Positions 7,587-40,373 of a stretch of 64,000 nucleotides of DNA are shown one piece after another. Each line of letters begins with the position of its first letter. The first letter of the stretch is position 1. Both the position numbers and the translations under genes were made by a program. The notes beneath the pieces are model-generated. The model was not told the DNA's origin. It saw only the letters and a program-made list of their open reading frames with translations, and ran no database searches. The DNA is taken from NCBI GenBank assembly GCA_963714895.1, contig CAVQQC010000020.1, forward strand, positions 21,985 through 85,984, in the 5' to 3' direction. This DNA comes from Candidatus Sulfomarinibacteraceae bacterium. Lineage in GTDB: Bacteria; Acidobacteriota; Thermoanaerobaculia; Thermoanaerobaculales; Sulfomarinibacteraceae.

Positions 7587-7612
7587 GTCCACCTCCCGGT
7601 GTTGGCCTGCAC

Positions 7613-8875
7613 TCATTGACTGTAGCTCAAGAGCTCCTTGGCGATGGCGGCGTCGGGGTCATCCGGCGCCAGTAGGATGAAGCGTTCGAGGTAGGCGCGC
7701 GCAGACCCGGTGTCACCCTTGTTGAAGGCCGCCATCCCGAGGATGAAGATGGCCTTCGGTTCGTCGGGCCGCACCTTGAGCACGAGTTCCATGAGCCCCG
7801 CCGCCTCGTCGTAGAGGCCGGCGTCGTAATGCTCCACGCCGCGTTTGAAGAGCTCTTCGACCGCATAGTCGGGATCGACCTCCGCCAATTTCGCCGCCAA
7901 CTCCATTTCGACCGCATCGTCGCCGCGCGCCACGGCCATGTCGTAGGCCAGCCTCACGGCCAGCGCGTTGTCGGGCTCGAGCGCCAGCACCGCTTCGACC
8001 TCGCGCCGGGCGCACTCGATGTCACCGTCCTCTTTGCAGATCGCGCCCAGGAAGACGTGCGGCGGCACCAGCGTGGGGTCGACCGTCACCGCTTCCTCGA
8101 GGAGGGCCCTGGCCTTGGCACGGTCGCCCGCGCGGTAGACGTCGATCGCCTCGTTGTAGACGCGGCCGGCGGCCTCGGAGTCGACACCCGCGGTCTTGAG
8201 AGCGGCCGCCGCCTCTTCAGCGCGGGGGTCGCCGTCCTTGCGGTAGGCTTCGTAACGGATCTGCAGGGCACGCGCGTCGGATGCATCCAGCTCGAGCGCC
8301 TTTTCGGCGGCCGCCGCCGATTCGGCGAACTTGCCCTGCAGATAGTAGACCCCGGCGAGCCCGGCAAAAGGCGCCGCAAGGGTCGGGATCGAGCTCGGCC
8401 GCCTTGGCGTAGCGCTCGGCGGCGGTCTCGAGGTCGCCGGCGTTCTGCGCCTCGACACCCGAGTTGAAGACATCGGCCGCCTGTCCCCGGAGCATGGCGG
8501 CGGGATTCGCCGGACCTGTGCCGATCCGGCGGGCCGCATCACGAAGGTCCGCTGGGTGGAACCTCCCACGTTGGCCCGCACCTTTTCCACCAGCACCTCA
8601 TAGCCTTCCTTTTCGAGCTTGTAGGTGTAGGTGAAGGTGGCATTGCTGTGGCCGACCATGAAGCGGCCCTTCTTGTTGCTGGTGGCGGTGTCCTCGTAGT
8701 TCACGAGGTCCGCGGTGGTGATGGTCACCTGGACCCCTTCGATGGGGTTGCCCTCCACGTCGACGACCTTGCCGGCCACCCGGCCGGCGGCCTGGGCGGA
8801 AGCATCGGCCGCCGCCAACACCGCAGCCGCACATACGCACACAACGACGACGATTTCCCGAAACTTCATCATCAC
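7613..8875 (-). pseudogene. Secreted CarboxypepD_reg-like domain + TPR-repeat protein (two local frameshifts)
   Basis: Signal peptide, then GRVAGKVVDVEGNPIEGVQVTIT…, then multiple TPR-like helices. The central segment is read correctly only in the 8217-8495 frame (…GDLETAAERYAKAAELDP…). The start overlaps the VWA gene stop (ATGA). Confidence 0.7.
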
Positions 8876-10614
8876 TCTCCCTGTGAGACGTCCGGTGTGG
8901 ACGAATTCAATACCTGATAGGACGCCTGCCGCGTCAGCCGGTCATAAAGCCCCACCGCCACCCGAAATCGGCCCGACTCGACCAGCAACTGGAGATCGAT
9001 CGACAACCTCAGGTTCGCCATGCGCTCGTACTCGGCCCGCGGAATGTAGATCTCCTGCACCCGCTGCTGGAGGTCGGCCTGTTTGCCGGAGGCGTCGCGC
9101 AGCGACACGTAGAGCACCACTTCGCCGACGAAATTGTCTCCCTGCGGCAGCAGCGCCACCGACCGGGTGGGGAAGGAGACCCGTAACGGCAGGAGCCAGC
9201 GATCCTCCTGGGCCGCTGTCGGCTTGTCGGCAACGGCTTCGATCTGCATCGGGTTCTCGTCGATATCGAAGAGGAGGGCGGTCATCACCCGGTCCTGCAC
9301 TTCCGATTCGCGGCTCTTTTCGACAAAGGCCGAGCGATAGCGGACGTCGAGTCCAGGGTGGTTGGGCAACCTGATCTCGATGCGGTGGACCCGGTCGCTG
9401 CCGACGCTGTGGATGGGGTAGCCGATCGAGTAATAGGTGAAGAGATCCTCGCGGATCCTGGCAAGGCCGCCCGTGAAGTCGTTGGTGCCGACCGTGGACA
9501 ATCCTCCGGTGCGTTCGGCGATGTAGACCAGCGGCTCCTCGGTGTTCATCATCGCGATGGCGGCAGCGGCCGGATCGCCGGACACGCCGCGTTCGGCCGA
9601 CACTCCCACGTCGGGCGCCAGCCCGCGGGCGTCGATGGTGTAGAAGACCATCCCCTGTGAATTGGCGGCTGCAGCCAGATCGCGGTAGTCGGCGCGCTTG
9701 TTGAAACGCGCCGTCAGACTCAGAAAGGACACGCCTTTGTACATGTTGGTGAACTCGTAGAACAGGTCCTTTGCGATCACCATCGGCATCCCGCTGGACA
9801 CGTAGACCAGGCATTTGCGGCCCGGCAACCCGGTGAGCCCGGTCCCCACCATGCGCACCGCCGTGATGTCGCGCTGAATCTCCGAGTTGATCTGGTCGGC
9901 GTAGGAAATGAGGTCGTCCAGGACCAGGGCCGCCTTCTGGGTGAGGGGGTCGTCCTTGCCGACCCTGGTCGCCTCCTCGTTGCGCAGCCGATCGATATCG
10001 CGCTGGAGGTTGGCATGCTGTGACTGGTTTGCCGTCCTGCCGCCCGTGCTCTTCCGCAGCTCCCGCAGGGCGTCGGCAAGCTCGCCGGCGTTCGAGGTGA
10101 AGGGCTGGATGACGTGGGGCGATCCCTGGTTGGCGACGATCATCGCCTGGACGCCATCGCGCACCGTGTCGGTCAGAAACTGGCGCAGGGCCCCCAACAC
10201 CCGGTTGCGGTCGAAGGGCATCAGGTTTTCGTCGTCCACATAGACGACGATGTGGATGGGCTGGATCTCCGGTTGCGGAGCGACCTCGACCCCAGCAGAC
10301 GCCGGGGCCTCATCGGCGGCCGATGCTTCCGTCACCTCGCGCCGAACGGCCTCATTCACCAGGAGGAAGTGGGTCACCTTGCGTTGCTCGCCGTCCTGAA
10401 AGACCTCGAAGTCGTCGATCCCGAGATCGGTGACCGGCGTCCCGTCCTTGTCGCGGACAAACGCCTCGAGGTTGACGACGGTGACCTCGACCTCATCGAG
10501 AAAGGCGAGCCCGCCGACTGCCTGCTGATCGTCCTTTATTTCTTCCGCGGCCCAGCCGGCGAGACCGGCGGCCGCCGTGAGTACGATCAGCCCGGCGATG
10601 GTCTTCTTGCTCAT
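8872..10614 (-). CDS. VWA domain-containing protein (VWFA-related acidobacterial-type, TIGR03436-like)
   Basis: MSKKTIAGLIVLTAAAGLAGW anchor, then LAFLDEVEVTVVNLEAFVRDKDGTPVTDLGIDDFEVFQDGEQRKVTHF… and an HIVVYVDDENL VWA core. The start is taken at ATG 10614 rather than the longer ORF start at 10839. Confidence 0.8.
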   Translation of the reverse strand: MSKKTIAGLIVLTAAAGLAGWAAEEIKDDQQAVGGLAFLDEVEVTVVNLEAFVRDKDGTPVTDLGIDDFEVFQDGEQRKVTHFLLVNEAVRREVTEASAADEAPASAGVEVAPQPEIQPIHIVVYVDDENLMPFDRNRVLGALRQFLTDTVRDGVQAMIVANQGSPHVIQPFTSNAGELADALRELRKSTGGRTANQSQHANLQRDIDRLRNEEATRVGKDDPLTQKAALVLDDLISYADQINSEIQRDITAVRMVGTGLTGLPGRKCLVYVSSGMPMVIAKDLFYEFTNMYKGVSFLSLTARFNKRADYRDLAAAANSQGMVFYTIDARGLAPDVGVSAERGVSGDPAAAAIAMMNTEEPLVYIAERTGGLSTVGTNDFTGGLARIREDLFTYYSIGYPIHSVGSDRVHRIEIRLPNHPGLDVRYRSAFVEKSRESEVQDRVMTALLFDIDENPMQIEAVADKPTAAQEDRWLLPLRVSFPTRSVALLPQGDNFVGEVVLYVSLRDASGKQADLQQRVQEIYIPRAEYERMANLRLSIDLQLLVESGRFRVAVGLYDRLTRQASYQVLNSSTPDVSQGE

Positions 10615-10673
10615 CACTCGCGACGCCCCTCCGCGCCGCAGTGTAGCAGGACGGGCGGCCCGGTTCGCGGCCA

Positions 10674-11108
10674 TCACTTCGGAGGGATCTCCTCGTTGCC
10701 GTTCAGCCCCCCGAGGCGCCGCAGCCCATCGCCGACCTCGAACCAGCTCGCGTGGTGGTCGTAGAAGACGTGCGCTGCAGGCGCCCGGTCGATGGGCTCC
10801 TCCATGTGGGCGAGAGCGATGTGGATCTCGTCGGGCCATCGTTCGCCCTCGAAAAAGAGGGTGCTGCCGCAGCGGCCGCAGAAGCCGCGGCGGGCCGGCG
10901 GCGAGGACCGGTACCAGACGAGGTGTTCCTCACCCGAGGTCATCGAGAACTGCGTCCGCTCCACCCCGAACCACGTCACGAACGCCGCGCCGTGGGCGCG
11001 CCGGCACAGTGAACAGTGGCAGTGGGCGCACCACTTCGTCGGCGGCACGATCTCGAACCGGACGGCGCCGCACAGGCAACGGCCGGTCAAGGAAGAATCG
11101 TCGCTCAT
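10674..11108 (-). CDS. GFA family protein (glutathione-dependent formaldehyde-activating / CENP-V fold)
   Basis: GRCLCGAVRFEI…WCAHCHCSLCRRAHGAAF…GFCGRCGSTLF carries the characteristic Zn-binding Cys pattern. Confidence 0.85.
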   Translation of the reverse strand: MSDDSSLTGRCLCGAVRFEIVPPTKWCAHCHCSLCRRAHGAAFVTWFGVERTQFSMTSGEEHLVWYRSSPPARRGFCGRCGSTLFFEGERWPDEIHIALAHMEEPIDRAPAAHVFYDHHASWFEVGDGLRRLGGLNGNEEIPPK

Positions 11109-21354: not shown

Positions 21355-24300
21355 ATGAAGGTCACGCGTCGCTTCACACGCGCCGAGCACGATCCGTACG
21401 AGTCCATCGAATTTATCGAGAGGTCGTCGGAGATCCGCAATCCCGACGGCAGCGTGGTCTTCTCCATGGACGGGATCAAGGTCGCCGAAGACGTGGTCCC
21501 AGGTCGCGGTCGACGTCCTCGTCCAGAAGTACTTCCGCAAGGCGGGAGTGCCGCAACTCGACGAGGAGGGCAACCCCGAGATGTCGGAAAGCGGGGAACC
21601 GCTCACCGGCCCCGAGCGCGACGCCCGCCAGGTCTTCGACCGGCTCGCCGGCTGCTGGACCCACTGGGGCAAGGAGCACGGCTACTTCGACACGCGACGA
21701 GGACGCCGAAGGCCTTCCACGACGAGCTCTGCTACATGCTGGCCGGCGCAGATCGCCGCGCCCAACTCTCCGCAGTGGTTCAACACCGGGCTCCACTGGG
21801 CCTACGGCATCACCGGCCCCGCCCAGGGCCACTGGTACGCCGACCCGAAGACCGGCAAGCTCAAGACCTCGTCGAGCGCCTACGAGCACCCGCAGCCGCA
21901 CGCCTGCTTCATCCAGTCGGTCGCCGACGATCTGGTGAACGAGGGCGGCATCATGAACCTGTGGGTCCGCGAAGCCCGCCTGTTCAAGTACGGTTCGGGG
22001 ACCGGCACCAACTTCTCGCAGCTGCGCGGCCACGGCGAACCGCTCTCCGGCGGCGGCCGTTCCTCGGGTCTGATGTCCTTCCTCAAGATCGGCGACCGCG
22101 CGGCCGGCGCCATCAAATCAGGCGGCACCACCCGCCGCGCGGCCAAGATGGTGTGCCTCGATCTCGACCACCCCGACATCGAGGAGTTCATCTCCTGGAA
22201 GGCGGTGGAAGAGCGCAAGGTGGCCGCGCTGGTCACCGGATCGCGGCTCTTGCGGCGCCAGCTGCAGGAGATCCTCGACGCGTGCTTCCCGAACGGCTCG
22301 GGCGATCCGGTCATGGACTCTGGAGAAGAACGCCGACCTCAAGACGGCGATCCGGACCGCGCGCCGGCGGGGCGTGCCGGACGGTTCCGATCCAGCGCGT
22401 GCTGCAGCTCGCCGCGCAGGGCGTGCAGACCTATCCGGTCGAAGAGTACGACACCGACTGGGACTCGGACGCCTACTACACGGTGTCGGGCCAGAACGCC
22501 AACAACAGCGTCCGGGTGCCCAACGCCTTCTTCGGCGCCCTCGAGGTCAACCGCGACTGGACCCTGGTCAACCGCACCGACGGTGCGGTGGCGAAGAAGG
22601 TCCCGGCGGCCAAGCTGTGGAACGACATCACCCTCGCGGCCTGGGAGTGCGCCGATCCCGGCCTCCAGTTCGACGACACCATCAACGAGTGGCACACCTG
22701 CCCGGCGAGCGGGCGCATCAACGCCTCCAACCCCTGTTCCGAGTACATGTTCCTGGACGACACGGCGTGCAACCTGGCGTCGCTGAACCTGGTGCGCTTC
22801 CTCGATTCAGGACCAGACATTTCGACATCGAGCTCTTCCGTCACGCGGTCCGGCTGTGGACGATCGTGCTCGAGATCTCGGTGCTGATGGCCTCGTTCCC
22901 GAGCCGCCGGATCGCCGAGCTGAGCTATCGCTACCGCACCCTGGGTCTCGGCTTCGCCAACATCGGATCGTTGCTGATGCGGCTGGGCATCCCCTACGAC
23001 TCCGACAAGGGCCGTTCGATCTGCGGCGCCATCACCGCCATCATGACCGGCGAGTCCTACGCGACCTCGGCCGAGATGGCCGCCGAGCTCGGTCCCTTCC
23101 CGGGCTTCGAGGAAAACCGCGAGCACATGCTGCGGGTCATCGGCAACCACCGCCGGGCCGCCTACGACGCGCCGGCCGAGATGTACGAGGGCCTGACGAT
23201 CAAACCTGACGGGCCTGTCCGCGGAGACCACGCCGCCCGATCTGCTCGCAGCCGCCCGCGAGGCCTGGAACCGGGCGGTCGAGCTCGGCACCGAGCACGG
23301 CTTCCGCAACGCCCAGGCGACGGTGCTCGCCCCGACCGGCACCATCGGTCTGGTGATGGACTGCGACACCACCGGCATCGAGCCCGATTTCGCTCTGGTC
23401 AAGTTCAAGAAGCTCGCCGGCGGCGGCTATTTCAAGATCATCAACCAGGGCATCCCGTCGGCCCTCACGACCCTCGGCTACACCGACCGAACAGATCGAC
23501 GAGATCGTCGCCTACACGATCGGCCACGGCACCCTCGACGGGTGCCCGACGATCGATCACGAGGCCCTGCAACGCCAAGGGCTTCACCGACGAGGTCATC
23601 GCACAGGTCGAGAAGGCGCTGCCGACCTCCTTCGACATCGGCAACGCCTTCGCGCCGCACGTGGTCGGCGAGGACATTCCTCCGCGGTCTCGGTATCACC
23701 GATGACGAGATTGGCGACTGGACTTTCGACGTGCTCGCCTCGTCTCGGGTTCACGCGACCCAGGAGATCGAGACCGCCAACACCTGGGCCTGCGGCACCA
23801 TGACCGTCGAGGGCGCGCCGCACCTCGCCGACGAAGCACCTGCCGGTCTTCGACTGCGCCAACCGTTGCGGCAAGAAGCGGCACCCGCTCGATCCGCTAC
23901 GACGGCCACATCCTGATGATGGCCGCGGCCCAGCCCTTCATCTCGGGCGCCATCTCCAAGACCATCAACATGCCCGCCGAGGCGACCCTCGACGACATCA
24001 AACGCGCCTACTACCTGGCCTGGCAGAAGATGCTCAAGGCGGTCGCGCTCTACCGCGACGGCTCCAAGCTGAGCCAGCCTCTGGGCATCGCCATGGACGT
24101 CGAGGAGGAGGAGGCGCTGGCCGAGGCGGTCGCCACGGGCGACGCCGGCCAAGGTCGCCGAGTCGATGGCCGAACGGGTCGTGATCCGCTACCAGGCGCG
24201 CCGCCACCGCCTGCCCGGCCGGCGCACCGGCTTCACCCAGAAGGCCTCGGTCGGCGGCCACAAGGTCTACATCCGCACCGGCGAGTACGAGGACGGCTCG

Positions 24301-24881
24301 GTCGGCGAGATCTTCCTCGACATGCACCGCGAGGGCGCCGCCTTCCGGTCGCTGATGAACTGCTTCGCGATCGCGGTGTCGCTCGGTCTGCAGTACGGCG
24401 TGCCGCTCGAGGAGTACGTCGACGCCTTCGTCTTCACCCGCTTCGAGCCCTCGGGCATGGTCGGCGGCCACGACCGCATCAAGATGGCGACCTCGGTCAT
24501 CGACTACATCTTCCGCGAGCTCGCCATCACCTACCTCGACCGCGACGACCTCGCCCAGGTCTCGCTCGAGGACCTCCGCCACGACGCGGTCGGCACCGGC
24601 TCCGACCAGCACAAGATTCCGCCCAACGACGAGGACATGGCCGAGGTCCACCCGATCGCCGTCAACCAGAGCGGCGGCAACACGGTCACCGCGTCGTCCG
24701 GCAAAGGCCGTCGCCACCGGACGCACCTACGCTCGGGAGCCAGGCCCAGGCGGCCGCCCAGAAGGCGCGCTACATGGGCTACGAGGGCGACCCCTGCCCC
24801 GAGTGCGGCTCGCTCACCCTCGTCCGCAACGGCACCTGCCTCAAGTGCGACTCGTGCGGGGGAACGACCGGTTGCTCCTGA
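21355..24881 (+). pseudogene. nrdJ: Class II (adenosylcobalamin-dependent) ribonucleotide reductase, more than 12 frameshifts
   Basis: The N-terminus is [20 protein letters not shown]… Conserved blocks are …[15 protein letters not shown]…, …[12 protein letters not shown]…, …[21 protein letters not shown]…, …LAPTGTIGLVMDCDTTGIEPDF…, …[12 protein letters not shown]… The C-terminus is a Zn ribbon, [22 protein letters not shown]. These pieces are scattered over all three forward frames. Confidence 0.9.
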
Positions 24882-28234: not shown

Positions 28235-28748
28235 CTAGTACGGCGAGAAGCCGCCGTCGGCCCAGTGGTCTTCGCGGACGCCGTTGTAGAGCATCTGCAG
28301 GGCGTCGAGGTGCTGCTTCTCCCAGTCGGCGAGGAACTGGTAGAACTCCTTGACCTCGGTCTCGGAGGTGTTCTCGGCCGCACCCGAGAAGTACTTGATG
28401 GCATTGGTCTCGAGCGTCATGCCGATCGACAGCACCCCGAGCTCGAAGCTGGCGCCGTGGGCCTGCTTCTTGAACTCGTCGGTGAAGATGGTGCCGGTGA
28501 AGGCCTTGAGGTCGGGGTCGCGGTGCGGCATCTTGAAGGCCGCCAGACCCTTCTCTTCGTACGATCCGATCACCGACTGCAGGTAGGCCTTGTGCTGGAC
28601 CTCGTCCCGCGCGAGTTTGTCGAAGAGCTCCTGCACCGCCGGCTTGGTAGGCCCTCTCGGCGGCCATCGAGTAGAAGGTGTAGCCGTCGACCTCGATCTG
28701 GTAGGCCTTGCGCAGGATCTCGCGGATGTCGTCGTTTGCTTGAGGCAT
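28235..28748 (-). pseudogene. Ferritin-like (rubrerythrin-family) protein, one frameshift
   Basis: MPQANDDIREILRKAYQIEVDGYTFYSMAAERAY (28748 frame) continues as …ELFDKLARDEVQHKAYLQSV…EVKEFYQFLADWEKQHLDAL… (28235-28636 frame). Paired E…ExxH di-iron motifs are present. Confidence 0.75.
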
Positions 28749-28897: not shown

Positions 28898-29368
28898 TCA
28901 CGCTCCTTCCTCAACGGCCAACGCTTCCCGGTCGAGCGGCTCCGGTCGGAGCGCCGCCTCTTCGAGCGGCACCCAGGCGATGGCGCCGGTCGGACAGAAG
29001 GGCACGCACCGCGGGTCGCCGCCGCACAGGTCGCACTTCTGCACGCAGTGGTAGGTCTCGTCCCACATCATGTTGCCGAAGGGACACCCGGCGACGCACA
29101 TCCGGCACGAGATGCACCGCGAGCGCACCATGTCGATGGCGCCGGTCTCCGGGTTGCGCACCAGCGCCTGGGTCGGGCAGACCGCCACGCACCCCGCCTC
29201 TTCGCACTGGAAGCAGACGATCGGCGTGCCGAGTTCGGGACCCCGGCGGTGGATGTTGATGCGGGTCTTCGCGGGCCGGCCCTCGGAGCCGTGGGCGAAG
29301 GCGCAGGCCAGCTCGCACTTGCCGCAGGCGATACAGCGTTCGACGGAGACCTTGTAGATCATCTTCAT
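28898..29368 (-). CDS. 4Fe-4S dicluster-domain protein (HycB/polyferredoxin-like, about 4 clusters)
   Basis: MKMIYKVSVERCIACGKCELAC…CFQCEEAGCVAVCP…CISCRMCVAGCP…CDLCGGDPRCVPFCP. The start ATG overlaps the upstream stop (ATGA). Confidence 0.85.
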   Translation of the reverse strand: MKMIYKVSVERCIACGKCELACAFAHGSEGRPAKTRINIHRRGPELGTPIVCFQCEEAGCVAVCPTQALVRNPETGAIDMVRSRCISCRMCVAGCPFGNMMWDETYHCVQKCDLCGGDPRCVPFCPTGAIAWVPLEEAALRPEPLDREALAVEEGA

Positions 29369-30132
29369 CACTTCACCACCTGGAGCTTGGCGAAGGTCTT
29401 CGCCATCTCCCGCCGTTTGCTGCTGTCGCTCTTTTCGAAGTAGGTGATCGGGACCCCGCTGCGCTTCGCGAAATGCTCGGCCTGCTCCTTGGTGATCACC
29501 GCCTCGCCGGTCTTCGGATCGCGCAGCATCTCGAACTCGCGCCCCCAGATCGAGCGCCGGCTGTTCGAGGTCTCGTAGGGGATGAAGTCGGTCGGGCAGA
29601 TCTCGGCGCACGCCAGACAGCCGATGCAGTCGGGCGGCGGCTGGTTGAAGGGCGGCGCGATCTCGCGGCCCCAGCCGCGGTTGACGCTCGCGATCGCCGA
29701 CACCCCGATGTGGTCGCAGACCCGGGTGCAGAGACCGCACAGGATGCAGTCGGTGGGCTCGGGGTTCGGCTCGTACGAGGTCGCCTCGATGCCGTGTTCG
29801 CGGGCGACTTTCTGAATCAGCGGCGTGTCCGGGCACCGGGCGAGCAGCAGATCGAGCACCACCCGCCGGGTCTCCACCACCCTCTCCGAGTCGGTGACGA
29901 CCGTCATCCCCTCGGCCACCGGGTGGTTGCAGGAGGTGACCACCTTGAAGTAGTCGTCGTCCCAGTTGGCCTCGGACATGTCGACCACGCAGAGGCGGCA
30001 GCCGCCCCACGGTTCCAGACCGTCGAACTGGCACAGGGTGGGGACCTTGACGCCGGCCGCTCGGGCGGCGTCGAGAATGGTGGCGTCGGCATCCACGGTG
30101 ACGCGGCGGCCGTTGACCTGAAGCGTCGGCAT
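29368..30132 (-). CDS. NuoG/HydA N-terminal-like Fe-S protein (2Fe-2S + 4Fe-4S clusters, no catalytic domain)
   Basis: MPTLQVNGRRVTVDADATILDAARAAGVKVPTLC…GGCRLCVV…TSCNHPV…CILCGLCTRVC…CIGCLACAEICP. 254 aa, with a GGAGGTGG Shine-Dalgarno upstream. Confidence 0.8.
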   Translation of the reverse strand: MPTLQVNGRRVTVDADATILDAARAAGVKVPTLCQFDGLEPWGGCRLCVVDMSEANWDDDYFKVVTSCNHPVAEGMTVVTDSERVVETRRVVLDLLLARCPDTPLIQKVAREHGIEATSYEPNPEPTDCILCGLCTRVCDHIGVSAIASVNRGWGREIAPPFNQPPPDCIGCLACAEICPTDFIPYETSNSRRSIWGREFEMLRDPKTGEAVITKEQAEHFAKRSGVPITYFEKSDSSKRREMAKTFAKLQVVK

Positions 30133-32026
30133 CACACCACCTCCGCTTGTCTTGAGCTCGTGTTTGGGGAAGGTCCGGATCGAGTCGGTGGGACAGACCT
30201 CGACGCAGGCCCCGCACGAGATACAGGCCTCGTGGTCGATCACGTGCATCTCCTTGATGACTCCGGTGATGGCGTCCACCGGACAGACCTTGAAGCACAG
30301 GTGGCAGCCGTCGCAGTCGTCCATGATCTCGAAGGCCGTGAGCTCGCGGCAGACCCCCGCCGGACAGGCGTGGTCTGCTGATGTGGGCCTCGTACTCCGA
30401 CCGGAAGTACCGCAGGGTCGAGAGCACCGGGTTGGGCGCCGACTTGCCGAGCTCGCACAGGCTGCCGAGCTGCATGCCCGAGGCCAGATCGCTCGATGAG
30501 CTCGATGTCGCCCGGCCGCCCCTTGCCGTCGATGATGCGGTCGTAGATGGCCACCATCTGTTTGAGGCCTTCGCGGCAGGGGGTGCACTTGCCGCAGCTC
30601 TCCTCCTCGAGGAAGGCGAGGAAGTAGCGCGACGACGTCGACCATGCAGGTGCGGTCGTCCATCACGATCATGCCGCCGGAGCCCATCATCGAACCCGCC
30701 TCGGTGAGCTTGTCGAAGTCCACCGGCAGGTCGAGCAGCTCCTCCGGGACGCAGCCGCCCGAGGGGCCGCCGGTCTGCACGGCCTTGAAGGGCCGGTCCT
30801 TGAGGATCCCGCCGCCGATGTCGTAGATGATGTGGCGCAGGGTGGTGCCCATGGGCAGCTCGATGAGGCCGGTGTTCTTGACCTTGCCGACCAGCGAGAA
30901 CGCCTTGGTCCCCTTGGATTTCTCGGTCCCCATGGAGGCGAACCAGTCGCCGCCGCGGTCGATGATGGCGCCGATCCCCGCCCAGGTCTCGACGTTGTTG
31001 AGCACCGTCGGCTGGTCGAAGAGGCCCTTGGCGGTGGAGTGGACGTACTTGGCCCGCGGCTCGCCGGTCTTGCCCTCGAGCGAACGCATCAGGGCCGAGG
31101 ACTCGCCGCAGACGAAGGCGCCGCCGCCGCGCGAGATCTCGATGTCGAAGTTGAATCCGGAGCCCAGGATGTCTGTCGCCGAGCAGACCGTACTTGCGGG
31201 CCTCGGCCAGCGCGATCGTGAGGTTGACCACCGCCAGCGGGTACTCGTCGCGGACGTAGATGTAGCCCTCGTGCGAACCGAGGGCATAGGCGCCGATGAT
31301 CATGCCTTCGAGCACCGAGTGCGGGTCGCCCTCCATGATCGAGCGGTCCTTGAAGGCACCCGGGTCGCCCTCGTCGCCGTTGCACAGGACGTATCGCCGG
31401 TCGCCCGACGCCGCCTTGCACGACCGCCACTTGCGGGCGGTCGAAAACCCCGCGCCGCCGCGGCCGCGCTGCCCGGAGGTCGCCACCTCGTCGATCACCT
31501 GATCGGGCGTCATCTCGAAAAGCGCCTTGGCCAGGCCTGAGTAGGCGCCCTCGGCGATGGCGTCGAGGATCGAGGTCGGGTCGATGCGGCCGATGTTGCG
31601 CATCGCCACCCGGACCTGGTTCTTGTAGAACGGGATCTCGGCGTACTGCTCGATGCGGTCGCCGCTCACCGGTTCCTTGTAGAGAAGGCCCGGGATGACC
31701 TCGCCGCCGATCAGCGTCTTTTCGACGATCTCCTCGACACGGCCAGGTTTGACCTTGGTGTAGAGAATGCCCGACGGCCGCAGGACCACCAGCGGCCCCC
31801 GTTCGCAGAAGCCGTGGCAGCCGGTCGACTTGACGAAGAGGTTGACCTCGGCATCCAGACTGCGTTTGGCGATCTCGCCGGCAAAGGCCTCGGCCACCTT
31901 CTTCGCGCCCGAAGCCAGACACCCGGTGCCGCAGCAGACCAGGACCTGCTGCGCGCGGTTGGCCTCGTTCTCGCGGGCCTGGGCGCGCAGCGTTTCAAAC
32001 GCCTTGCGGGACTCAATTCTCGTCAT
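30130..32026 (-). pseudogene. NuoF/HydB-like NAD(H)-binding FMN Fe-S subunit with N-terminal thioredoxin-like 2Fe-2S domain and C-terminal 2x[4Fe-4S], at least 4 frameshifts
   Basis: …VLVCCGTGCLASGA…CHGFCERGPLV…GRGGAGFSTARKW…YVLCNGDEGDPGAFKDR… (32026 frame). …GGGAFVCGESSALMRSLEG…TGGPSGGCVP… (29368 frame). …ESCGKCTPCREG… (third frame). …CDGCHLCFKVCP…CISCGACVEVCP. The exact 3' end is uncertain. Confidence 0.85.
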
Positions 32027-32498
32027 CGTCGCCTCCCGCCGCCAGGTAGGTCGCCATGCGGGCGGCCTTGGCGCTGCCGCGGTAGGTCTCGCCGACGATC
32101 ATCACCGGCGCCATGGCGCAGGCGCCCACGCAGTTGACGGTCTTGACCGTGAACTTGAGATCTTCGGTGGTCTCGCCGGGTTCGATCCCGAGCTGGCGCT
32201 TCAGCTCCTCGACGAGCTGGCCGGCGCCGCGGATGTGGCAGGCGGTCCCCATGCAGACCTTGACGATGGTGTCGCCCTGGGGTTCGAGCGAGAACGCCTT
32301 GTAGAAGGTCGACACGGAGAAGACCTTGGCCAGCGGCACTTCGAGCGCCTCGGCCACCCGCTCGAGCACGTCGCACGGCAGATAGTTGTAAGCGCGGTGA
32401 ACGTCCTGCAGGACCTGGATCAGGGCCGGCTCGGCGGCCGGATATCTGGCCAGGATGTCCTCGGTCATCGTGAGGTCGGAACAGGGAGTCTCAGCCAT
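32013..32498 (-). CDS. NuoE/HydC-like thioredoxin-fold 2Fe-2S subunit
   Basis: …IQVLQDVHRAYNYLP…VCMGTACHIRGA…VNCVGACAMAPVM… The ATG overlaps the OFOR gamma stop (ATGA). The 3' end overlaps the NuoF-like start by 14 nt. Confidence 0.85.
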   Translation of the reverse strand: MAETPCSDLTMTEDILARYPAAEPALIQVLQDVHRAYNYLPCDVLERVAEALEVPLAKVFSVSTFYKAFSLEPQGDTIVKVCMGTACHIRGAGQLVEELKRQLGIEPGETTEDLKFTVKTVNCVGACAMAPVMIVGETYRGSAKAARMATYLAAGGDDDEN

Positions 32499-33052
32499 CA
32501 GGCCTCCAGCACCTTGTGCGCCGCACCCAACTCGTAGCCCATCCGCAGCGCCTCGATGTTGACGTCGATCACCGCCGGCTTGGCGGCGAAGGTCTCGCGG
32601 ATCACGGCGATCACCTCATCGAGGGAGACCGCATCGGTGGCCCCGAGGTAGGCGCCGAGGGCCACCATGTTGGCGCCCCGCGGGTTGCCGAGCTCGGTTG
32701 CGATCTCGTTGGCCGGTACCTCGATGACCGTCAGGTCGTCACGGTCGCTGCCGCGGTTGATGAGCGACGAGTTGATCAGCAGAAGCCCTCCCGGACGGAT
32801 GTCCGGCTCGAACTTCTCGAGCGACGGCAGGTTCATGGCCAGCACCGCCCGTGGCGAGCGGATGACCGGCGAGCCCACCGGTTTGTCGGAGACCACCACC
32901 GTGCAGTTGCAGGTGCCGCCGCGCATCTCGGGGCCGTAGGACGGCAGCCACGAGACCTCTTTGCCCTCGTGCATGCCCGCATAGGCCAGCATCTTGCCGA
33001 TCAGCAGGATCCCCTGCCCCCCGAACCCGGCCATGATGACTTCACTCTGCAT
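32498..33052 (-). CDS. 2-oxoacid:ferredoxin oxidoreductase, gamma subunit
   Basis: MQSEVIMAGFGGQGILLIGKMLAYAGM…WLPSYGPEMRGGTCNC… is the typical POR/KOR gamma N-terminus. 184 aa. Confidence 0.9.
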   Translation of the reverse strand: MQSEVIMAGFGGQGILLIGKMLAYAGMHEGKEVSWLPSYGPEMRGGTCNCTVVVSDKPVGSPVIRSPRAVLAMNLPSLEKFEPDIRPGGLLLINSSLINRGSDRDDLTVIEVPANEIATELGNPRGANMVALGAYLGATDAVSLDEVIAVIRETFAAKPAVIDVNIEALRMGYELGAAHKVLEA

Positions 33053-33063
33053 GCCCCCTCCAC

Positions 33064-33829
<766 letters not shown>

Positions 33830-33837
<8 letters not shown>

Positions 33838-34918
33838 GGTGCACCTCCACCGAGCTGCCGTCGAGAATGGCCTTGACCTTGGCCACCACCTCGTCCGGCG
33901 ACACCAGCATCCCGCCCATCCGGTTGTAAAAGTGGACCGGCCGGGTGCGTGCCAGGGCGAGCTGGACGTCCTCGATCATCTGGCCCGTGGACAGCTCCAC
34001 CACCAGCACTGCTTTCGCCTTCTCGGCGGTCTCACGGACCGCTGCGTAGGGGAAGGGAAACAGGGTGATCGGGCGGACGAGGGCCGCCTTGATGCCTTCC
34101 TGCCGGAGCTCTTCGATGGCGGTGGAGCACACCCGCGCCACCGTCCCGTAGGCCACGATCACGACCTCGTAGTCGTCGTCGGCGCCCTTGGTGGCGTAGC
34201 GGACCTCGTCCGCTTCCATCAGGTCGTACTTGGCCTTGAGCTTGATGTTGTGCCGCTCGAGCTCCCCGGGATCGAGAAAGAGCGAGTTGATGACGTTGGT
34301 GGGCCGGCTGCCGTCGCACCCGGTGGCCGCCCAGGTCTTGGGCTCGAGCTCTTTGATCGGCTGCCGGCCTTCGGGAAACTCCACCGGTTCCATCATCTGC
34401 CCGATCAGCCCGTCGCCGAGCACCATCACCGGGTTGCGGTAGTAGTCGGCGAGGTCGAAGGCGTCCTGGACGAGGTCCGCCGCCTCCTGGACCGACCACG
34501 GCGCCAGAACCAGCACTCTGAAGTCACCGTGGCCGAGGCCCTTGGTGGCCTGGAAGTAGTCGCCCTGACTGGGGAGAATGCCGCCGAGACCCGGTCCCGC
34601 GCGGACGATGTTGACGATCACCACCGGCAGCTCCGCACCGGCGATGTAGGAGATGGCCTCCGCCATCAATGACACACCGGGCGACGACGACGAGGTCATG
34701 ACCCGCTCGCCGGTGCCGGCGGCGCCGTAGATCATGTTCGAGGCCGCCACCTCCGACTCCGCCTGGACGAACGCGCCGCCGATCTGCGGCAGCCGCATCG
34801 ACATGTACTCGGGGATCTCGTTCTGCGGGGTGATCGGGTAGCCGAAGAAGAGCTTGCACCCGGCCTGTACCGCCGCCTCGCCGATGGCCTCCGAGCCTTT
34901 CATGAGTTTCTTGGCCAT
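33830..34918 (-). CDS. 2-oxoacid:ferredoxin oxidoreductase, alpha subunit
   Basis: MAKKLMKGSEAIGEAAVQAGCKLFFGYPITPQNEIPEYM…AESEVAASNMIYGAAGTG… 362 aa. Confidence 0.9.
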
Positions 34919-34927
34919 GGCAACCCC

Positions 34928-35161
34928 TCAGTAGGAAAAGTAGTGGTACATGGTCCCGTTGACCTTCATCTCGATGGCCATGTCGGGACAGGTGATACAG
35001 CACAGACGACAGCCGATACAGCGCATCTGCTCCACCACCTCGGCGTAGAAGTAGCCCTTGGTGTTGATGTCCCGGCCCATGCCGAGAATCTGCTGGGGGC
35101 ACGCGTGAACGCAGAGCTCGCACCCCTTGCAGCGGTTGGGGCTGATCACGATCTGCGGCAT
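34928..35161 (-). CDS. 2-oxoacid:ferredoxin oxidoreductase, delta subunit (2x[4Fe-4S] ferredoxin)
   Basis: MPQIVISPNRCKGCELCVHACP…CIGCRLCCITCP. 77 aa from ATG 35161. Confidence 0.85.
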   Translation of the reverse strand: MPQIVISPNRCKGCELCVHACPQQILGMGRDINTKGYFYAEVVEQMRCIGCRLCCITCPDMAIEMKVNGTMYHYFSY

Positions 35162-35174
35162 GAACGCTCCTTTC

Positions 35175-35891
35175 TCAGCTGATGACGAAGAGCGGCCCGG
35201 TGGTGCGCCGCTCCAGAGTCTGTGCAAACGGCGGCCGGACGATTCGCCGCATGGCGATCACCGGACACTCGAGGTCTTCGTCGGACATCTCTCCGGCCAG
35301 GTCGGAGGCGACGGTGATCGCCGCCAGCGGCACTCCCGCCAGGCGGGCGGTCTCGAGGGCCAGTGTATAGCCCTCCATCACCACCTCGACGGTGGTCTCG
35401 TCCATCAGGTGGGTGTTGGAGATGAGGCCGGTCACCGGCACGCGGCCCACCGCCTCGATCTCCCGTACCATCGCCAGAGCGCGCTCCGCATCCGGGGTCG
35501 AGGGCCGCCGGAAGTTGAGAACCAGAAGGCACTCGGTCTCATCGAGCGGCACCACGTCGGAAAGCGACCCCAGGACTCTGGCTCCGACATCGTCGCCGCC
35601 GACATCCAGGATCAGGTGTCTGCGGTCATGGCGAAGTTGGCTGCGGATCTGGGGAACGATGATCGGCAGGTCGGAGTGGACGTTGGCGCCGGTGGGTGCG
35701 AGGAGTTCGATTCCGGCATCGGCGAGAATCTCCCTCGCCGCCCGCGAGCGGAAGTAGGGTTTGACGACGTCGAGATCGGCGAGGGTGACGGGGACACCCG
35801 AAGCGGCCAACTGGAGCGCCCCGTTGAGGGCGATCTCGGTCTTGCCGCTGCCGAAGTGGCCGACGAAAACTGTCACCCGCTTGCGAAACAA
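35175..35891 (-). CDS. P-loop NTPase (SIMIBI/MinD-ParA-like), first gene of the OFOR operon
   Basis: …VTVFVGHFGSGKTEIAL… (Walker A), …LILDVGGDD… (Walker B-like). The start is placed at TTG 35891, behind AGGAGTGAGGG. The ORF is open to 35963. Confidence 0.6.
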   Translation of the reverse strand: MFRKRVTVFVGHFGSGKTEIALNGALQLAASGVPVTLADLDVVKPYFRSRAAREILADAGIELLAPTGANVHSDLPIIVPQIRSQLRHDRRHLILDVGGDDVGARVLGSLSDVVPLDETECLLVLNFRRPSTPDAERALAMVREIEAVGRVPVTGLISNTHLMDETTVEVVMEGYTLALETARLAGVPLAAITVASDLAGEMSDEDLECPVIAMRRIVRPPFAQTLERRTTGPLFVIS

Positions 35892-37677: not shown

Positions 37678-38549
37678 CTCTGATCGGGTTCCGCCGCCAG
37701 TCGGATTCTGCGCGCAGCGCACTCGGCGAATCCGTTGCAGCCGCGGCACACCGGGTCGGCGACGAAACCGAACTCGGTCGGCGCGCACACCGTGATGGTG
37801 GGGTCCCTGGCAGCGTCGAGTTCGGTGAGCAACGGTTCGTCCTCCGGCGCCACCACCCCGCCCTCGCGACTTCGCGCCTCAGCGCCCCGCACCAGCGGGT
37901 CCCACGCCCGGTTGCGGTCCTCCGCCTGCGCGTTTTCGGCGCGGATGGCGATATCGGCTTTGCGTTTGGAAAATTCGAAGGCGATTTTGCGGCGGGTCGG
38001 GAGCCGCCGCGTGGCGAGAAAGAAGAGATAACCCGCCGACGTCCCCGCAATGTTGGCGAGACCGGCGACCACTCCCATGGACAGACTCGACCAGACCAGG
38101 ATCGCCGCGGCGACGATGGCCAGGTACTTGACCTTGACCGGGATGATGAAGAAGAGCCGGAACTCGACCTCCGGGTAGAGGGTTGCAAAGGTGAAGAGGA
38201 GGCACGAGCTGAAGCCGAGGTCGCCGAAGAGCGGCCGACCGATCAGCGCGGCGGTGACCGACGCGCCGAAGGTGGCCACCATCCAGAAGACGAGAAAACG
38301 CGGCGAGCCCCAGCTTTCCTCGAGCGGCTTCGCCATGATCCACAGCACCAGCATCGAGATGAAAAACCAGAACATGCTGGAACCATGGATGAACTGGTAG
38401 GTCACCAGGGTCCACGGACGCGCACTCACGAGCCCGGGGAAAAGGGCCAGCGCTTGCTGGCTGCCCTCCATCGTGGTGCTGAGGATGAAGACCGCGAAGT
38501 GGGCGAAGATCAAACCCTCGGTCAGATGCCATTGTTCTCGCTGGATCAT
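37671..38549 (-). CDS. Rhomboid-family intramembrane protein with Cys-rich C-terminal tail
   Basis: Multi-TM protein with …PWTLVTYQFIHGS…WGSPRFLVFW…GASVTAALIG… The tail is …CAPTEFGFVADPVCRGCNGFAECAARR. It overlaps the mutL stop by 4 nt. Confidence 0.6.
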   Translation of the reverse strand: MIQREQWHLTEGLIFAHFAVFILSTTMEGSQQALALFPGLVSARPWTLVTYQFIHGSSMFWFFISMLVLWIMAKPLEESWGSPRFLVFWMVATFGASVTAALIGRPLFGDLGFSSCLLFTFATLYPEVEFRLFFIIPVKVKYLAIVAAAILVWSSLSMGVVAGLANIAGTSAGYLFFLATRRLPTRRKIAFEFSKRKADIAIRAENAQAEDRNRAWDPLVRGAEARSREGGVVAPEDEPLLTELDAARDPTITVCAPTEFGFVADPVCRGCNGFAECAARRIRLAAEPDQSH

Positions 38550-40373
38550 CGTCTCCCGAGCCTCCGTTCCATCTCCTCCTGGCTCAGGCGGAGGATGATG
38601 GGTCGTCCGTGCGGACAGCGATAGGGGTTGTCCGTCGCCAGCAGATCGTCGAGGAGGGCGCGTTGCTCGTCGACCGTCAGACGGTGATTGACCTTGATCG
38701 CGCCGCGGCAGGACAGCGAAGCCGCCAGTTCTTCTTCAAGCTCCCGGGAGGTATTCTCGGGAACGCCGTCGAGGGCGGTGGCGCGGTCGAGGACGCCTCC
38801 GACGACCTCTCGGACCGCCTGCTCATCGAACTCCGGCGGGACCGAGAGGATGCGGATGGTCTCCGGCCCGAAGAGCTCGGCCTCGATGCCGACCTTGCGC
38901 AGGATATTTTCGACAGCGGGCAGGGCCGCAGCGTGCGCCTCATCGACTTCGAGCAGGCACGGCGACAAAAGACCCTGAGAGGGCGCTTCGCCTCCTGCCA
39001 ACCGCCGGCGGATCTGATCGAAGAGGACGCGTTCATGGGCCACGTGCTGATCCACGATCACCAGACCATGGTCGTCTTCCAGCAGCAGAAACGAGTTCCG
39101 GTACTGGCCGAGGAGACGGCCGAACGGCGTGTCGGCAGCTCCGGCCCTCGCACCCGATCGCACCCGCGGGTGGTCTTTGTCCGGGCGCCAGACCGTCGCC
39201 CTCCCCGTCGCCATCGGCAGGCCCCTCGATCGACACCTCGCCGTAGGCGGGGTGATCGAACAGGGCCCCACCACCACCCGCCGCGGCATGCCGGCCACGG
39301 AGCATTTCCCCATATCCCCCCGTTTGCGGTTCGGCCATCCCGCGAGGCGGCGCACCGTCCTCCAACGCCCGCACCTCGACACGGCCCTGGGAGGCGGCGA
39401 CACCCTCGCGCATCGCGCGTTCGATGAGGGCAAAGACCGAGCCAGACCGCGAGAACCGCACCTCCGCCTTGGCCGGGTGGACGTTGACATCCACCTCCTC
39501 GGGCGGCAGCCTCAGATCGACCACCACCCTGGCGCCGCCGAAGCCGCTTCCCGCCGACCGCAAGACCCGCAGCACCGCGCCGACGACGAGGCGATCGCGG
39601 ACCGCCCTCCCGTTGACCAGCAAGGTGAGGGAAGGCCGGCCGCTGCCGCCCCCCGGCGCCAACAGCCCCCGCACCTCGGCCTCGCCGGCGGTCGCGCCGA
39701 AAACAACAACCCGGTTTGCGTTGCGCCACAGGTCCTTGAGCCGCTGCGACGCATCGGCCACCGCCGGTGCGTCGATCAGCACCCGCGAGCCGTGGCGCAG
39801 GACAAAGGCCACTTCGGGGCGGGCCAGCGCCGCGCCCCACAGAATCTCCTGAGCGTGTCGCAGTTCGGTCTCGGGGGAGCGCAGGAACTTTCTCCGCGCG
39901 GGGGTGTTGAAGAAGAGGTCGCCGACCTCGACCGTGGTACCGCGGGCCCTCGCAGCGCCGTCGGCGGCGAGGATCCGCCCTCCTTCGACCGTCACCCGAA
40001 CCCCACCCTGGGCGGGATCGGCGGAGGTCACGAGGACGAACCGGGAGACCGCCGCGATCGACGGCAGTGCCTCGCCGCGAAAACCGAGGGTCGCGATGTG
40101 GTCGAGCTCCTCGGCCGAGCTGATCTTCGAGGTCGCATGCCGTTCGAGGGCGAGGACGGCGTCGTCCGCATCCATACCGCAACCGTCGTCCGAAACGCGC
40201 ACGCTGCTGCGGCCGCCGTTGACCAGGTCGACCTCGATCCTGGTGGCCTCGGCATCGAGGCTGTTCTCGACCAACTCCTTCACTACGGACGCAGGCCGCT
40301 CCACCACCTCACCGGCGGCGATGCGGTTGATCAGACCATCGGACAGCACGTGAATGCGGGACACGAGGGACAT
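38546..40373 (-). pseudogene. mutL: DNA mismatch repair protein MutL, one frameshift in the linker
   Basis: N-terminal GHKL ATPase domain: MSLVSRIHVLSDGLINRIAAGEVVERPASVVKELVENSLDA…DDGCGM…LGFRGEAL. The C-terminal dimerisation domain (…FGRLLGQYRNSFLLLEDDHGLVIVDQHVAHERVLF…PHGRP…) is in the 38546 frame. The shift lies near 39100-39200. Confidence 0.9.

Follow-up and report, generated by a model that had tools for sequence, protein, structure and literature searches.

An acidobacterial gene cluster joins a 2-oxoacid:ferredoxin oxidoreductase to a Bfu module and a Wor-type connector: a possible variant of the predicted Por-Bfu

The stretch of DNA that we analysed (64,000 nt from contig CAVQQC010000020.1 of a Candidatus Sulfomarinibacteraceae bacterium; 'the window', positions in which are used as coordinates throughout) carries an operon in which the genes of a four-subunit 2-oxoacid:ferredoxin oxidoreductase (OFOR) are joined to a NuoE/NuoF/NuoG-N-like module, a polyferredoxin and a rubrerythrin. 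We consider the chances about even that its ten genes serve a 2-oxoacid oxidoreductase that is built from several subunits, belongs to the Bfu (HydABC-type) family and represents an acidobacterial variety of the predicted Por-Bfu; judging from the sequences, we hold the more specific proposal of a bifurcating OFOR-Bfu complex, in which electrons would be shared between NAD+ and ferredoxin, to be evenly poised as well. A single solved structure, that of WorABC(SL)3 (PDB 9mqx; the tungsten-containing aldehyde oxidoreductase of Acetomicrobium mobile, which bifurcates electrons; PNAS 2025, PMC12318220), provides the best solved relative of the NuoF-like protein, the NuoG-N-like protein and the polyferredoxin at once. 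Because the best solved relatives are found there, we name the genes BfuC, BfuB, BfuA and a WorS-type connector, following the nomenclature of Schut et al.

An earlier reading of the same DNA, made from its letters and open reading frames (ORFs) (‘the sequence-only reading’), implied that the arrangement is novel. This was overstated: Por-Bfu has already been predicted as a Type 2 Bfu with four OFOR subunits and BfuABC (Por-BfuABCDEFG), on the basis of 12 sequences, found in Chloroflexi (Dehalococcoides mccartyi) and in syntrophic Proteobacteria, with no biochemical characterisation (Schut et al. 2022, Front Microbiol 13:946711, PMC9304861); in the BfuB tree of that work its members belong to clade 35, 44 or 45. 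The proposed activity is pyruvate oxidation coupled to simultaneous reduction of NAD+ and ferredoxin; Acidobacteriota are not listed for Por in this 2022 survey (PMC9304861). Our wider literature search for OFOR together with NuoEF yielded nothing beyond Schut et al., and the operon is not mentioned in the Sulfomarinibacter/Thermoanaerobaculia literature searched, including the published Ca. Sulfomarinibacter genome analysis. What is new as compared to the published Por-Bfu is the Acidobacteriota clade, the different OFOR subfamily, the connector of the WorS/WorA type, the accompanying NTPase and rubrerythrin, and a Lys at residue 204 of BfuB.

The window has a G+C content of 65% and is rich in long spurious ORFs; real genes were selected through third-position G+C (GC3) and profile matches. 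All nine co-directional, nearly abutting genes listed by the sequence-only reading are present on the minus strand from 35891 to 28898, as judged by Pfam matches and by reading the junctions (Table 1), and the cofactor-binding cysteines and the thiamine pyrophosphate (TPP) motif are in place across the operon proteins. The first gene starts with the TTG at 35891, which gives its product the same length as that of its homologues. The overlap between the gamma stop and the NuoE-like ATG and the 14-nt overlap of the NuoE- and NuoF-like genes can be read directly in the sequence, and the junction between BfuA and the polyferredoxin, earlier given as an ATGA overlap, is in fact TGATG. The parts list itself was incomplete: it missed the WorS-like nature of the polyferredoxin, the WorA-like nature of BfuA, the rubrerythrin gene and the OFOR’s not being of the pyruvate type.

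The gene order is strongly conserved. We scanned one genome per GTDB species and found relatives of the 254-aa BfuA in 276 genomes; the locus counts given here cover the best 80 of these 276, nearly all of which are labelled Acidobacteriota (Ca. Sulfomarinibacteraceae, Thermoanaerobaculia or Thermoanaerobaculales, ‘Holophagae’). Within the limits of each contig, the ten genes keep the same order and orientation in 80 of 80 loci, including those with a BfuA identity as low as 61%; the P-loop gene comes first in every locus that reaches there, and the rubrerythrin, the tenth conserved gene, adjoins the polyferredoxin on its downstream side wherever the contig is long enough. The nearest loci among the GTDB representative genomes are 92.5% identical to the window at the nucleotide level, and synteny of the flanks (MutL and rhomboid upstream, ACBP and HAL downstream) is kept only in the ~30 closer loci and lost in the distant ones. 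A broader set of 1648 BfuA homologues consists typically of 254-aa stand-alone proteins. In a compact relative (L083) each gap from the OFOR to the rubrerythrin is at most 17 nt, with 10 nt before the rubrerythrin; the junction between the OFOR and Bfu genes, a 1-nt overlap in the window, is a gap of 10–17 nt in three relatives. Such an arrangement is far beyond chance. The survey of gene neighbourhoods proposed earlier therefore came out in favour of OFOR-NuoEF adjacency, which we found in all 80 loci as well as in two loci of the classical Por-Bfu type (L084 and L085), and the invariant order argues for the OFOR and the NuoEF/NuoG-N module being one functional unit and not an incomplete hydrogenase.

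The latter possibility, an incomplete hydrogenase or formate dehydrogenase with its catalytic subunit encoded nearby, was rejected on the basis of the window ORFs scanned and of the flanks in relatives. As the sequence-only reading had it, the OFOR has no catalytic partner, and to the extent of a non-exhaustive scan of ~30 GC3-selected ORFs over the 64 kb this holds: no hydrogenase, formate dehydrogenase, carbon monoxide dehydrogenase or tungsten oxidoreductase was detected among them. The scanned ORFs instead represent efflux, TonB, sulfatase, ABC and epimerase genes as well as ribonucleotide reductase (RNR), HAL, MutL, FtsK, Trp-biosynthesis and LysS, among others; furthermore, the flanks vary among the relatives whereas the cluster is constant. 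Neither an AOR-family domain nor WorL was found in the cluster, in the window ORFs scanned or in the gene calls of three related loci.

BfuB carries most of the features by which the family is recognised. It contains the four Bfu-defining domains (Nuo51 FMN-binding, SLBB, NuoF [4Fe-4S] and C-terminal 4Fe-4S ferredoxin-type), has a thioredoxin-like [2Fe-2S] domain at the N-terminus (residues 26–103, 2Fe-2S_thioredx; BfuC likewise has such a domain with [2Fe-2S]) and aligns over its full length to WorB, HydB and NfnB. The best solved relative is WorB (9mqx_B, E 1.7e-236, 59% identity), and BfuB is about equally far from WorB (59%) and from classical Por-Bfu BfuB (56–58%). The ligands of the B2 site – Cys438, His525, Cys531 and Cys536 in the numbering of A. 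mobile NiFe-BfuB, in which Ala202, Met204, Phe282 and Cys476 are also given – occur in all 1558 BfuB sequences and are missing from non-bifurcating homologues (PMC9304861). Their counterparts in the window protein, after correction of its frameshifts (see below), are Cys460, His547, Cys553 and Cys558, and the H...C....C pattern is found in all related loci. The Bfu-type residues Ala202 and Phe282 are also present (GDPGAF; GGGAFVCGE).

The connection between the OFOR and this core appears to be of the Wor type. BfuA has 13 Cys, one [2Fe-2S] motif and two CxxCxxCxxxC motifs, and no motif for a His-ligated cluster, from which we infer clusters A1, A2 and A4, i.e. a Type 2 protein without A3 and A5. 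Its best solved relative is WorA (9mqx_A, 247 aa, E 2.1e-46). An AlphaFold2 (AF2) model predicts a C-terminal helix at residues 236–252, with a predicted local distance difference test score (pLDDT) of ~80 in this segment and 65 overall; Foldseek aligns the model to the 247-residue WorA chain over 243 columns with an E-value of 1.3e-17 and a template modelling (TM) score of just 0.45. In Wor the polyferredoxin WorS (the ‘nanowire’) connects the catalytic module to BfuA, and in E. limosum worSL are expressed at an excess of about threefold (PMC12318220). The window polyferredoxin has 17 Cys, 16 of which are used by the four cluster motifs as read from the sequence, and its best solved relative is WorS (9mqx_E, E 8.1e-35). 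Thus the likeness to WorABC(SL)3 comprises a short BfuA with a C-terminal helix (predicted in the window) and a four-cluster polyferredoxin, and one difference is in the catalytic part: Wor has the tungstopterin subunit WorL, whereas among the window ORFs scanned there is none, and a TPP-dependent four-subunit OFOR is found instead.

The best NCBIfam match of the polyferredoxin is the N-terminal domain of PadI (E 2.1e-29, profile positions 10–136). The OFOR beta subunit of the window matches positions 226–366 of the same profile; none of the matches to this family comes near its cut-off (103 vs 700 bits). PadI is part of PadEFGHI, the NAD-dependent phenylglyoxylate dehydrogenase of Azoarcus/Aromatoleum (NCBIfam NF045762/64/66), reportedly described by Hirsch et al. 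in 1998. Pad resembles the window system in being an OFOR-type enzyme, in passing electrons to NAD+ and not just to ferredoxin, and in the four-cluster N-terminal domain of PadI; it differs in having the FAD/NAD subunit PadF instead of a NuoEF/Bfu module, and the window polyferredoxin is a separate gene. Because PadI fuses such a domain to the OFOR beta subunit of an NAD-linked enzyme, docking of the polyferredoxin on the OFOR gains Rosetta-stone support.

As judged by profile matches, the OFOR is VorB/Kor-like and not of the pyruvate type. The alpha subunit passes the cut-off of the NCBIfam ‘VorB’ subfamily NF005507 (534 bits, cut-off 399) and fails that of PorA_Arch (107 bits, cut-off 550), its best solved relative is the alpha subunit of 2-oxoglutarate synthase (8ys5), and its identity to the PorA of a classical Por-Bfu locus is 27%. 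For the delta subunit the best NCBIfam matches are OorD and OGOR_delta, both below cut-off. Given its VorB/Kor-like character, the enzyme is probably not confined to pyruvate, and 2-oxoglutarate or branched-chain 2-oxoacids may be used instead of pyruvate or besides it.

Comparison with the classical loci shows both how close and how different the acidobacterial system is. We recovered L084 and L085 with a BfuB fragment from the supplement as bait (D. mccartyi, derived by optical character recognition); the best match had 73% identity and the exact protein was not returned. The gene order is PorG-PorD-PorA-...-BfuC-BfuB-BfuA in L084 and PorD-PorA(392 aa)-PorB(307 aa)-BfuC-BfuB-BfuA-PorG in L085, so that in the latter the OFOR gamma gene follows BfuA and the Bfu genes lie between OFOR genes. 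The classical systems and the window share four OFOR genes accompanied by BfuC, BfuB and a short BfuA free of a catalytic domain, no hydrogenase or formate dehydrogenase, one [2Fe-2S] and two [4Fe-4S] motifs in BfuA, the full Bfu cluster set in BfuB and the proposed 2-oxoacid/NAD+/ferredoxin reaction logic. The Bfu subunits of the window are 40–58% identical to those of L085 and its OFOR subunits just 27–30% (25–30% for L084 and L085 taken together), with alpha subunits of 392 vs 362 aa and beta subunits of 307 vs 257 aa in the classical loci and the window, respectively; furthermore, the window alpha falls in the VorB subfamily and not in PorA, the type that the Por-Bfu definition asks for. 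Neither L084 nor L085 has the P-loop gene, the polyferredoxin or the rubrerythrin. Judging from these sequences, two unrelated OFOR subfamilies are independently joined to Bfu modules in different phyla, which speaks for the OFOR-Bfu pairing being functional; together with the tight OFOR-Bfu junction it adds to the case for a single functional unit. As a side observation, in the metagenomic locus L085 (region 8826–9001; gene order 4749–10842) BfuB is called as two ORFs of 395 and 165 aa, with an in-frame TGA at a position where relatives have Leu (VPMGLT*REIIYDIGGG).

The BfuA proteins differ between the two types as well. The classical BfuA stops four residues after the CPDC of its Zn finger; that of the window is 16 residues longer, and the extra part includes the predicted helix. 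Por-Bfu BfuA has been described as having the Zn finger and lacking the C-terminal helix, in a cluster without a WorS homologue (PMC12318220). L084 and L085 fit this description, whereas the window contradicts it, with a WorS homologue in the cluster, a predicted C-terminal helix and no Zn-finger cysteines. The Zn finger (CxxC...CxxC, residues 205/208/235/238, window ~29420–29520) is intact in 29 of the 80 acidobacterial-type loci, the more distant ones; in the other 51, the window included, all four Cys are jointly replaced (D, T, S, S/T/V), with the fold and the helix kept.

Put together, the bifurcating complex would work as follows. The four-subunit OFOR would oxidatively decarboxylate a 2-oxoacid with coenzyme A (CoA) at its TPP site; the electrons would leave through the [4Fe-4S] clusters of the beta and delta subunits to the WorS-like four-cluster polyferredoxin, which would dock on the WorA-like BfuA through the C-terminal helix, and from there they would pass via the BfuA clusters to the BfuBC core, where the flavin mononucleotide (FMN) and nearby clusters would split them between NAD+ and ferredoxin (Fd). 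The overall reaction would be 2 RCOCOO- + 2 CoA + NAD+ + 2 Fdox -> 2 RCO-CoA + 2 CO2 + NADH + 2 Fdred. The host would benefit from being able to go on oxidising 2-oxoacids in spite of a highly reduced ferredoxin pool, with NADH and Fdred formed in a fixed ratio. Wor-Bfu, which oxidises aldehydes, reduces NAD+ and ferredoxin only together and neither of them alone (PMC9304861).

Several observations weigh against this proposal. The equivalent of Met204 is replaced by Lys (DEGDPGAFKDR; residue 226, window ~31350) in 76 of 77 clade members; this position is Met in every Bfu representative of the published supplement and Lys or Ala in the non-bifurcating homologues there (PMC9304861). The fifth, variable position of the B2 site (Cys476/Thr) is Ile in the window and Ile or Val in the clade; Ile is found at this position in 22 of the 1558 BfuB sequences (PMC9304861). 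In the case of BfuA, the lineage of the window has lost the Zn finger, which in WorA buttresses the helix, and the structural model is moderate (pLDDT 65, TM 0.45 to WorA). On the energetic side, 2-oxoacid oxidation (E0' ~ -500 mV) can reduce both NAD+ and ferredoxin without bifurcation, which makes a thermodynamic need for it doubtful, as the authors who predicted Por-Bfu concede (PMC9304861). The ever-adjacent rubrerythrin permits a different ‘third substrate’, and the frameshifts discussed below would, if real, mean that the module is dead in this genome. Finally, the literature searched offers neither biochemical nor structural nor transcript data on any Por-Bfu, and the two papers in it that use the name report no assay.

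The Lys in place of Met204 therefore leaves real room for a non-bifurcating 2-oxoacid:NAD+ oxidoreductase, modelled on the NAD-linked Pad or on the NAD-reducing Hox and formate dehydrogenase enzymes, in which the polyferredoxin and BfuABC would conduct electrons from the OFOR to FMN and NAD+ and ferredoxin would not be obligatory. We think this unlikely, if marginally less so than the other alternatives. Lys is the residue found at position 204 of Nqo1, HoxF and the non-bifurcating S. wolfei HydB, and both half-reactions are exergonic from a donor of ~ -500 mV (PMC9304861); the polyferredoxin, moreover, resembles the N-terminal domain of PadI, which comes from an NAD-dependent OFOR. Against this stand the Bfu-type Phe282 and Ala202 and the retention of the N-terminal [2Fe-2S] domain, the Cys3His site and the C-terminal 2x[4Fe-4S] ferredoxin-docking domain, all of which non-bifurcating homologues are without. 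Furthermore, Wor-Bfu, the closest solved relative, requires both acceptors even though the reduction of each is exergonic (PMC9304861). WorB itself has Met204 where the window BfuB has Lys, and WorA has the Zn-finger Cys that are lost in the window lineage and kept in the 29 more distant relatives.

The rubrerythrin suggests another possibility, namely that the operon encodes two enzymes: an ordinary ferredoxin-dependent OFOR and a separate complex of BfuABC, polyferredoxin and rubrerythrin, similar to Rub-Bfu with BfuA kept, in which NADH and reduced ferredoxin would reduce H2O2 or O2 and so protect the OFOR. A four-subunit OFOR with its own ferredoxin-like delta subunit is self-sufficient in other organisms, which we count in favour of this arrangement, and wherever the locus is long enough, the polyferredoxin gene has the rubrerythrin gene next to it, 10 nt away at the closest and at most ~50 nt away in 28 of 71 loci. 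The Pfam Rubrerythrin domain is recognised on the orthologue of locus L001, with no rubredoxin domain. Rub-Bfu has been proposed as a Bfu type in its own right: a predicted Type 4 Bfu of Thermotogae with the rubrerythrin directly after BfuB, no BfuA and no OFOR (PMC9304861). The conserved rubrerythrin-family gene beside the Bfu genes is common to both; in the window BfuA and the polyferredoxin lie between BfuB and the rubrerythrin and the OFOR is present, and the lack of BfuA in the published Rub-Bfu counts against the parallel. The layout of the operon also argues against a division at the OFOR: the OFOR-BfuC junction (1-nt overlap; 10–17 nt in relatives) is as tight as the junctions within the modules, whereas a palindrome of the repetitive extragenic palindrome (REP) type has been inserted between the polyferredoxin and the rubrerythrin here and in several relatives, marking that junction as the looser one. 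In another phylum, moreover, the Bfu genes have OFOR genes to either side and there is no rubrerythrin. We therefore judge the two-enzyme explanation to be rather unlikely. Probably the rubrerythrin is expressed alongside the enzyme as a peroxide scavenger and shields this oxygen-labile system.

In the window, BfuB is spread over three reading frames, and the sequence-only reading had called for its frameshifts to be corrected. DNA alignment to loci L001, L003 and L007 locates five single-base insertions, at ~31173, 30634, 30489, 30380 and 30150; none of the five lies in a homopolymer and none occurs in L001, L003 or L007. Deletion of one base per site restores a 629-aa BfuB with a terminal TGA overlapping the next ATG. 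Its identity is 86.5% to the intact 628-aa BfuB of L001 and 96% to the L003 protein, a level shared by the adjoining intact genes. The rubrerythrin gene is frameshifted near 28650, its tblastn match being split over two frames. Similar lesions are found elsewhere in the window: the match of the class II RNR (21758–24878, plus strand) falls into at least seven pieces in three frames, and MutL (38549–39917, minus strand) carries one frameshift. The lesions are thus concentrated in RNR, MutL (1), rubrerythrin (1) and BfuB (5), lie outside homopolymers and spare neighbours of similar length. The closest relatives are metagenome-assembled genomes labelled MFD... with contig_NNN names, some of which show fragmented matches in other genes. 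Because the corrected BfuB is ~96% identical to its relative, like its intact neighbours, because other window genes are hit and because some MFD relatives show fragmented genes too, we read the five BfuB frameshifts as assembly errors, with high confidence; consensus errors arising from strain mixtures are one possible cause of their clustering.

If, on the other hand, the five bfuB insertions and the one in rbr are real, the cluster is a decaying pseudogene in this genome, a scenario that is independent of the other alternatives. It gains from the strongly non-uniform distribution of the indels: five fall within the 1.9 kb of bfuB, and the remaining 5.3 kb of the operon is free of them. Yet there are no stops besides the indels, the 96% amino acid identity to L003 is like that of intact neighbours, essential genes of the window are hit too (RNR with at least seven high-scoring segment pairs in three frames, MutL broken), and most other loci have intact orthologues, some MFD-labelled loci being fragmented in different genes; taken together this makes decay improbable. 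Two further interpretations of the frames were rejected. A BfuB-BfuA fusion, suggested by a 639-aa ORF without a stop before MPTLQVNG, is ruled out, as the fifth insertion near 30150 masks the true TGA and orthologues have a separate 628-aa BfuB and 254-aa BfuA; programmed frameshifting is ruled out by the five sites being unrelated non-slippery contexts that are missing from the relatives.

Lastly, the same complex running reductively, as a confurcating 2-oxoacid synthase that uses NADH and Fdred to carboxylate acyl-CoA for biosynthesis, strikes us as very improbable: Bfu enzymes are reversible, a role in gluconeogenesis has been suggested for Por-Bfu (PMC9304861) and alpha is closest to 2-oxoglutarate synthase among solved structures, but the mean of NADH (~ -280 mV) and Fdred (~ -500 mV), ~ -390 mV, is well above the ~ -500 mV of the acyl-CoA + CO2/2-oxoacid couple (PMC9304861), so that, from standard potentials, confurcation would hinder carboxylation as compared to Fdred alone, and the gene neighbourhood, as far as the ORFs were scanned, shows no CO2-fixation pathway.

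Returning to the bifurcating OFOR-Bfu complex, analogy with Wor invites a bolder version of it. The WorS-like polyferredoxin might polymerise on the BfuA helix and so wire several OFOR heterotetramers, and possibly the rubrerythrin, to one BfuABC core; we regard this as an unlikely elaboration. As part of it, the operon might encode a TPP-enzyme ‘nanowire’ that uses 2-oxoglutarate or branched-chain 2-oxoacids for bifurcation, with protection against peroxide built in, a suggestion that we hold with the same reserve.

The P-loop NTPase at the head of the cluster has 2186 homologues in metagenomes with a typical length of 238 aa, the named ones being almost all ‘hypothetical protein’; the top 120 are at least 75% identical to it. 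No family was assigned above cut-off (weak ParA/CbiA matches in Pfam, no match in NCBIfam, E 0.63 in PDB). The AF2 model (pLDDT 84) is placed by Foldseek at a TM of ~0.5 to the folds of signal recognition particle (SRP) GTPases, FlhF, ATPase-type HypB and Mrp-like proteins, and SNTHLMxE is invariant where SRP GTPases have TKxD. By analogy with its SIMIBI class the protein is possibly an assembly or maturation factor, which is a guess.

The palindrome downstream of the polyferredoxin begins one base past the stop codon and is the sole copy in the window. Across the 1.36 Mb that the related loci span, there are 25 palindromes of 65–100 bp with the termini GGTGCCAGG...CCTGGCACC; the inner arms vary and stay self-complementary, and the palindromes are located in the polyferredoxin-rubrerythrin gap, in the BfuA-polyferredoxin gap and at unrelated sites (three in L033), the same gaps being empty in other loci. 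By sequence they look like a mobile family of Thermoanaerobaculia of the REP or miniature inverted-repeat transposable element (MITE) kind, and the window copy probably stands outside the enzyme system. An Rfam search of the leader and intergenic regions returned just sub-threshold miRNA-hairpin matches on the palindrome and no known riboswitch; in the same regions no sigma-70-like promoter was detected and terminator-like sites did not exceed chance expectation. Elsewhere in the window, two adjacent ORFs in different frames at 3554–6178 (minus strand) both match outer-membrane beta-barrel/TonB-dependent receptor families, which looks like another gene split by an indel.

Table 1. Genes and other features of the operon, in the order of transcription, with the junction of each gene to the following one.
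Feature	Position	Strand	Supporting matches and motifs	Junction to the next gene
SIMIBI-class P-loop NTPase, 238 aa, TTG start after AAGGAG	35175..35891	-	weak Pfam ParA/CbiA	10-nt gap
OFOR delta, 78 aa, 2x[4Fe-4S]	34928..35164	-	Fer4_7/Fer4_21; two CxxCxxCxxxC motifs	9-nt gap
OFOR alpha, 362 aa (357 aa with start at 34903)	33830..34918	-	POR_N + PFOR_II; YPITP motif	8-nt overlap
OFOR beta, 257 aa	33064..33837	-	TPP_enzyme_C; TPP motif GDG...NN; four Cys fitting [4Fe-4S] site	5-nt gap
OFOR gamma, 186 aa	32498..33058	-	POR domain, E 1.7e-45	1-nt overlap (TGATG)
BfuC (NuoE/HydC-like), 161 aa, [2Fe-2S]	32013..32498	-	2Fe-2S_thioredx, E 4.8e-47; Cys82/87/123/127	14-nt overlap
BfuB (NuoF/HydB-like), 629 aa after correction	30132..32026	-	2Fe-2S_thioredx, Complex1_51K, SLBB, NADH_4Fe-4S, Fer4	1-nt overlap (TGATG) after frame correction
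BfuA (NuoG/HydA N-terminus only; WorA-like), 254 aa, [2Fe-2S] + 2x[4Fe-4S]	29368..30132	-	Fer2_4 + Fer4	1-nt overlap (TGATG)
WorS-like polyferredoxin, 156 aa, 4x[4Fe-4S]	28898..29368	-	Fer4_11; conserved tail motif PEPLDRE	
31-bp perfect inverted repeat, 34-nt loop	28802..28897		between polyferredoxin stop and rubrerythrin start	
Rubrerythrin-like diiron protein, ~170 aa, no rubredoxin domain	28235..28748	-	tblastn with L001/L002 rubrerythrin	

The direct linkage of an OFOR to NAD(H) by way of a bifurcating Bfu core is a testable prediction made in 2022 that bears on the NADH/ferredoxin balance of strict anaerobes, specifically in their oxidation of amino acids and organic acids. The clade described here provides a larger and more informative set of targets for it (276 species-level genomes with BfuA relatives, vs the 12 original Por-Bfu sequences). 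The bacteria that carry it, Thermoanaerobaculia and Ca. Sulfomarinibacter, abound in sediments of both the sea and fresh waters. The combination of an OFOR with the WorS/WorA ‘plug’ of the only solved Type 2 Bfu structure contradicts the published generalisation on Por-Bfu, and the natural change of Met204 to Lys offers a test case for a residue proposed to separate bifurcating from non-bifurcating flavin sites. We consider these results useful for the bifurcation field and for the physiology of sediment Acidobacteriota, and not very surprising. If the nanowire arrangement proves true, this would be the first OFOR shown to bifurcate, in a system widespread in sediment and soil Thermoanaerobaculia, and the WorS/WorA plug would be a general adaptor for unrelated catalytic modules.

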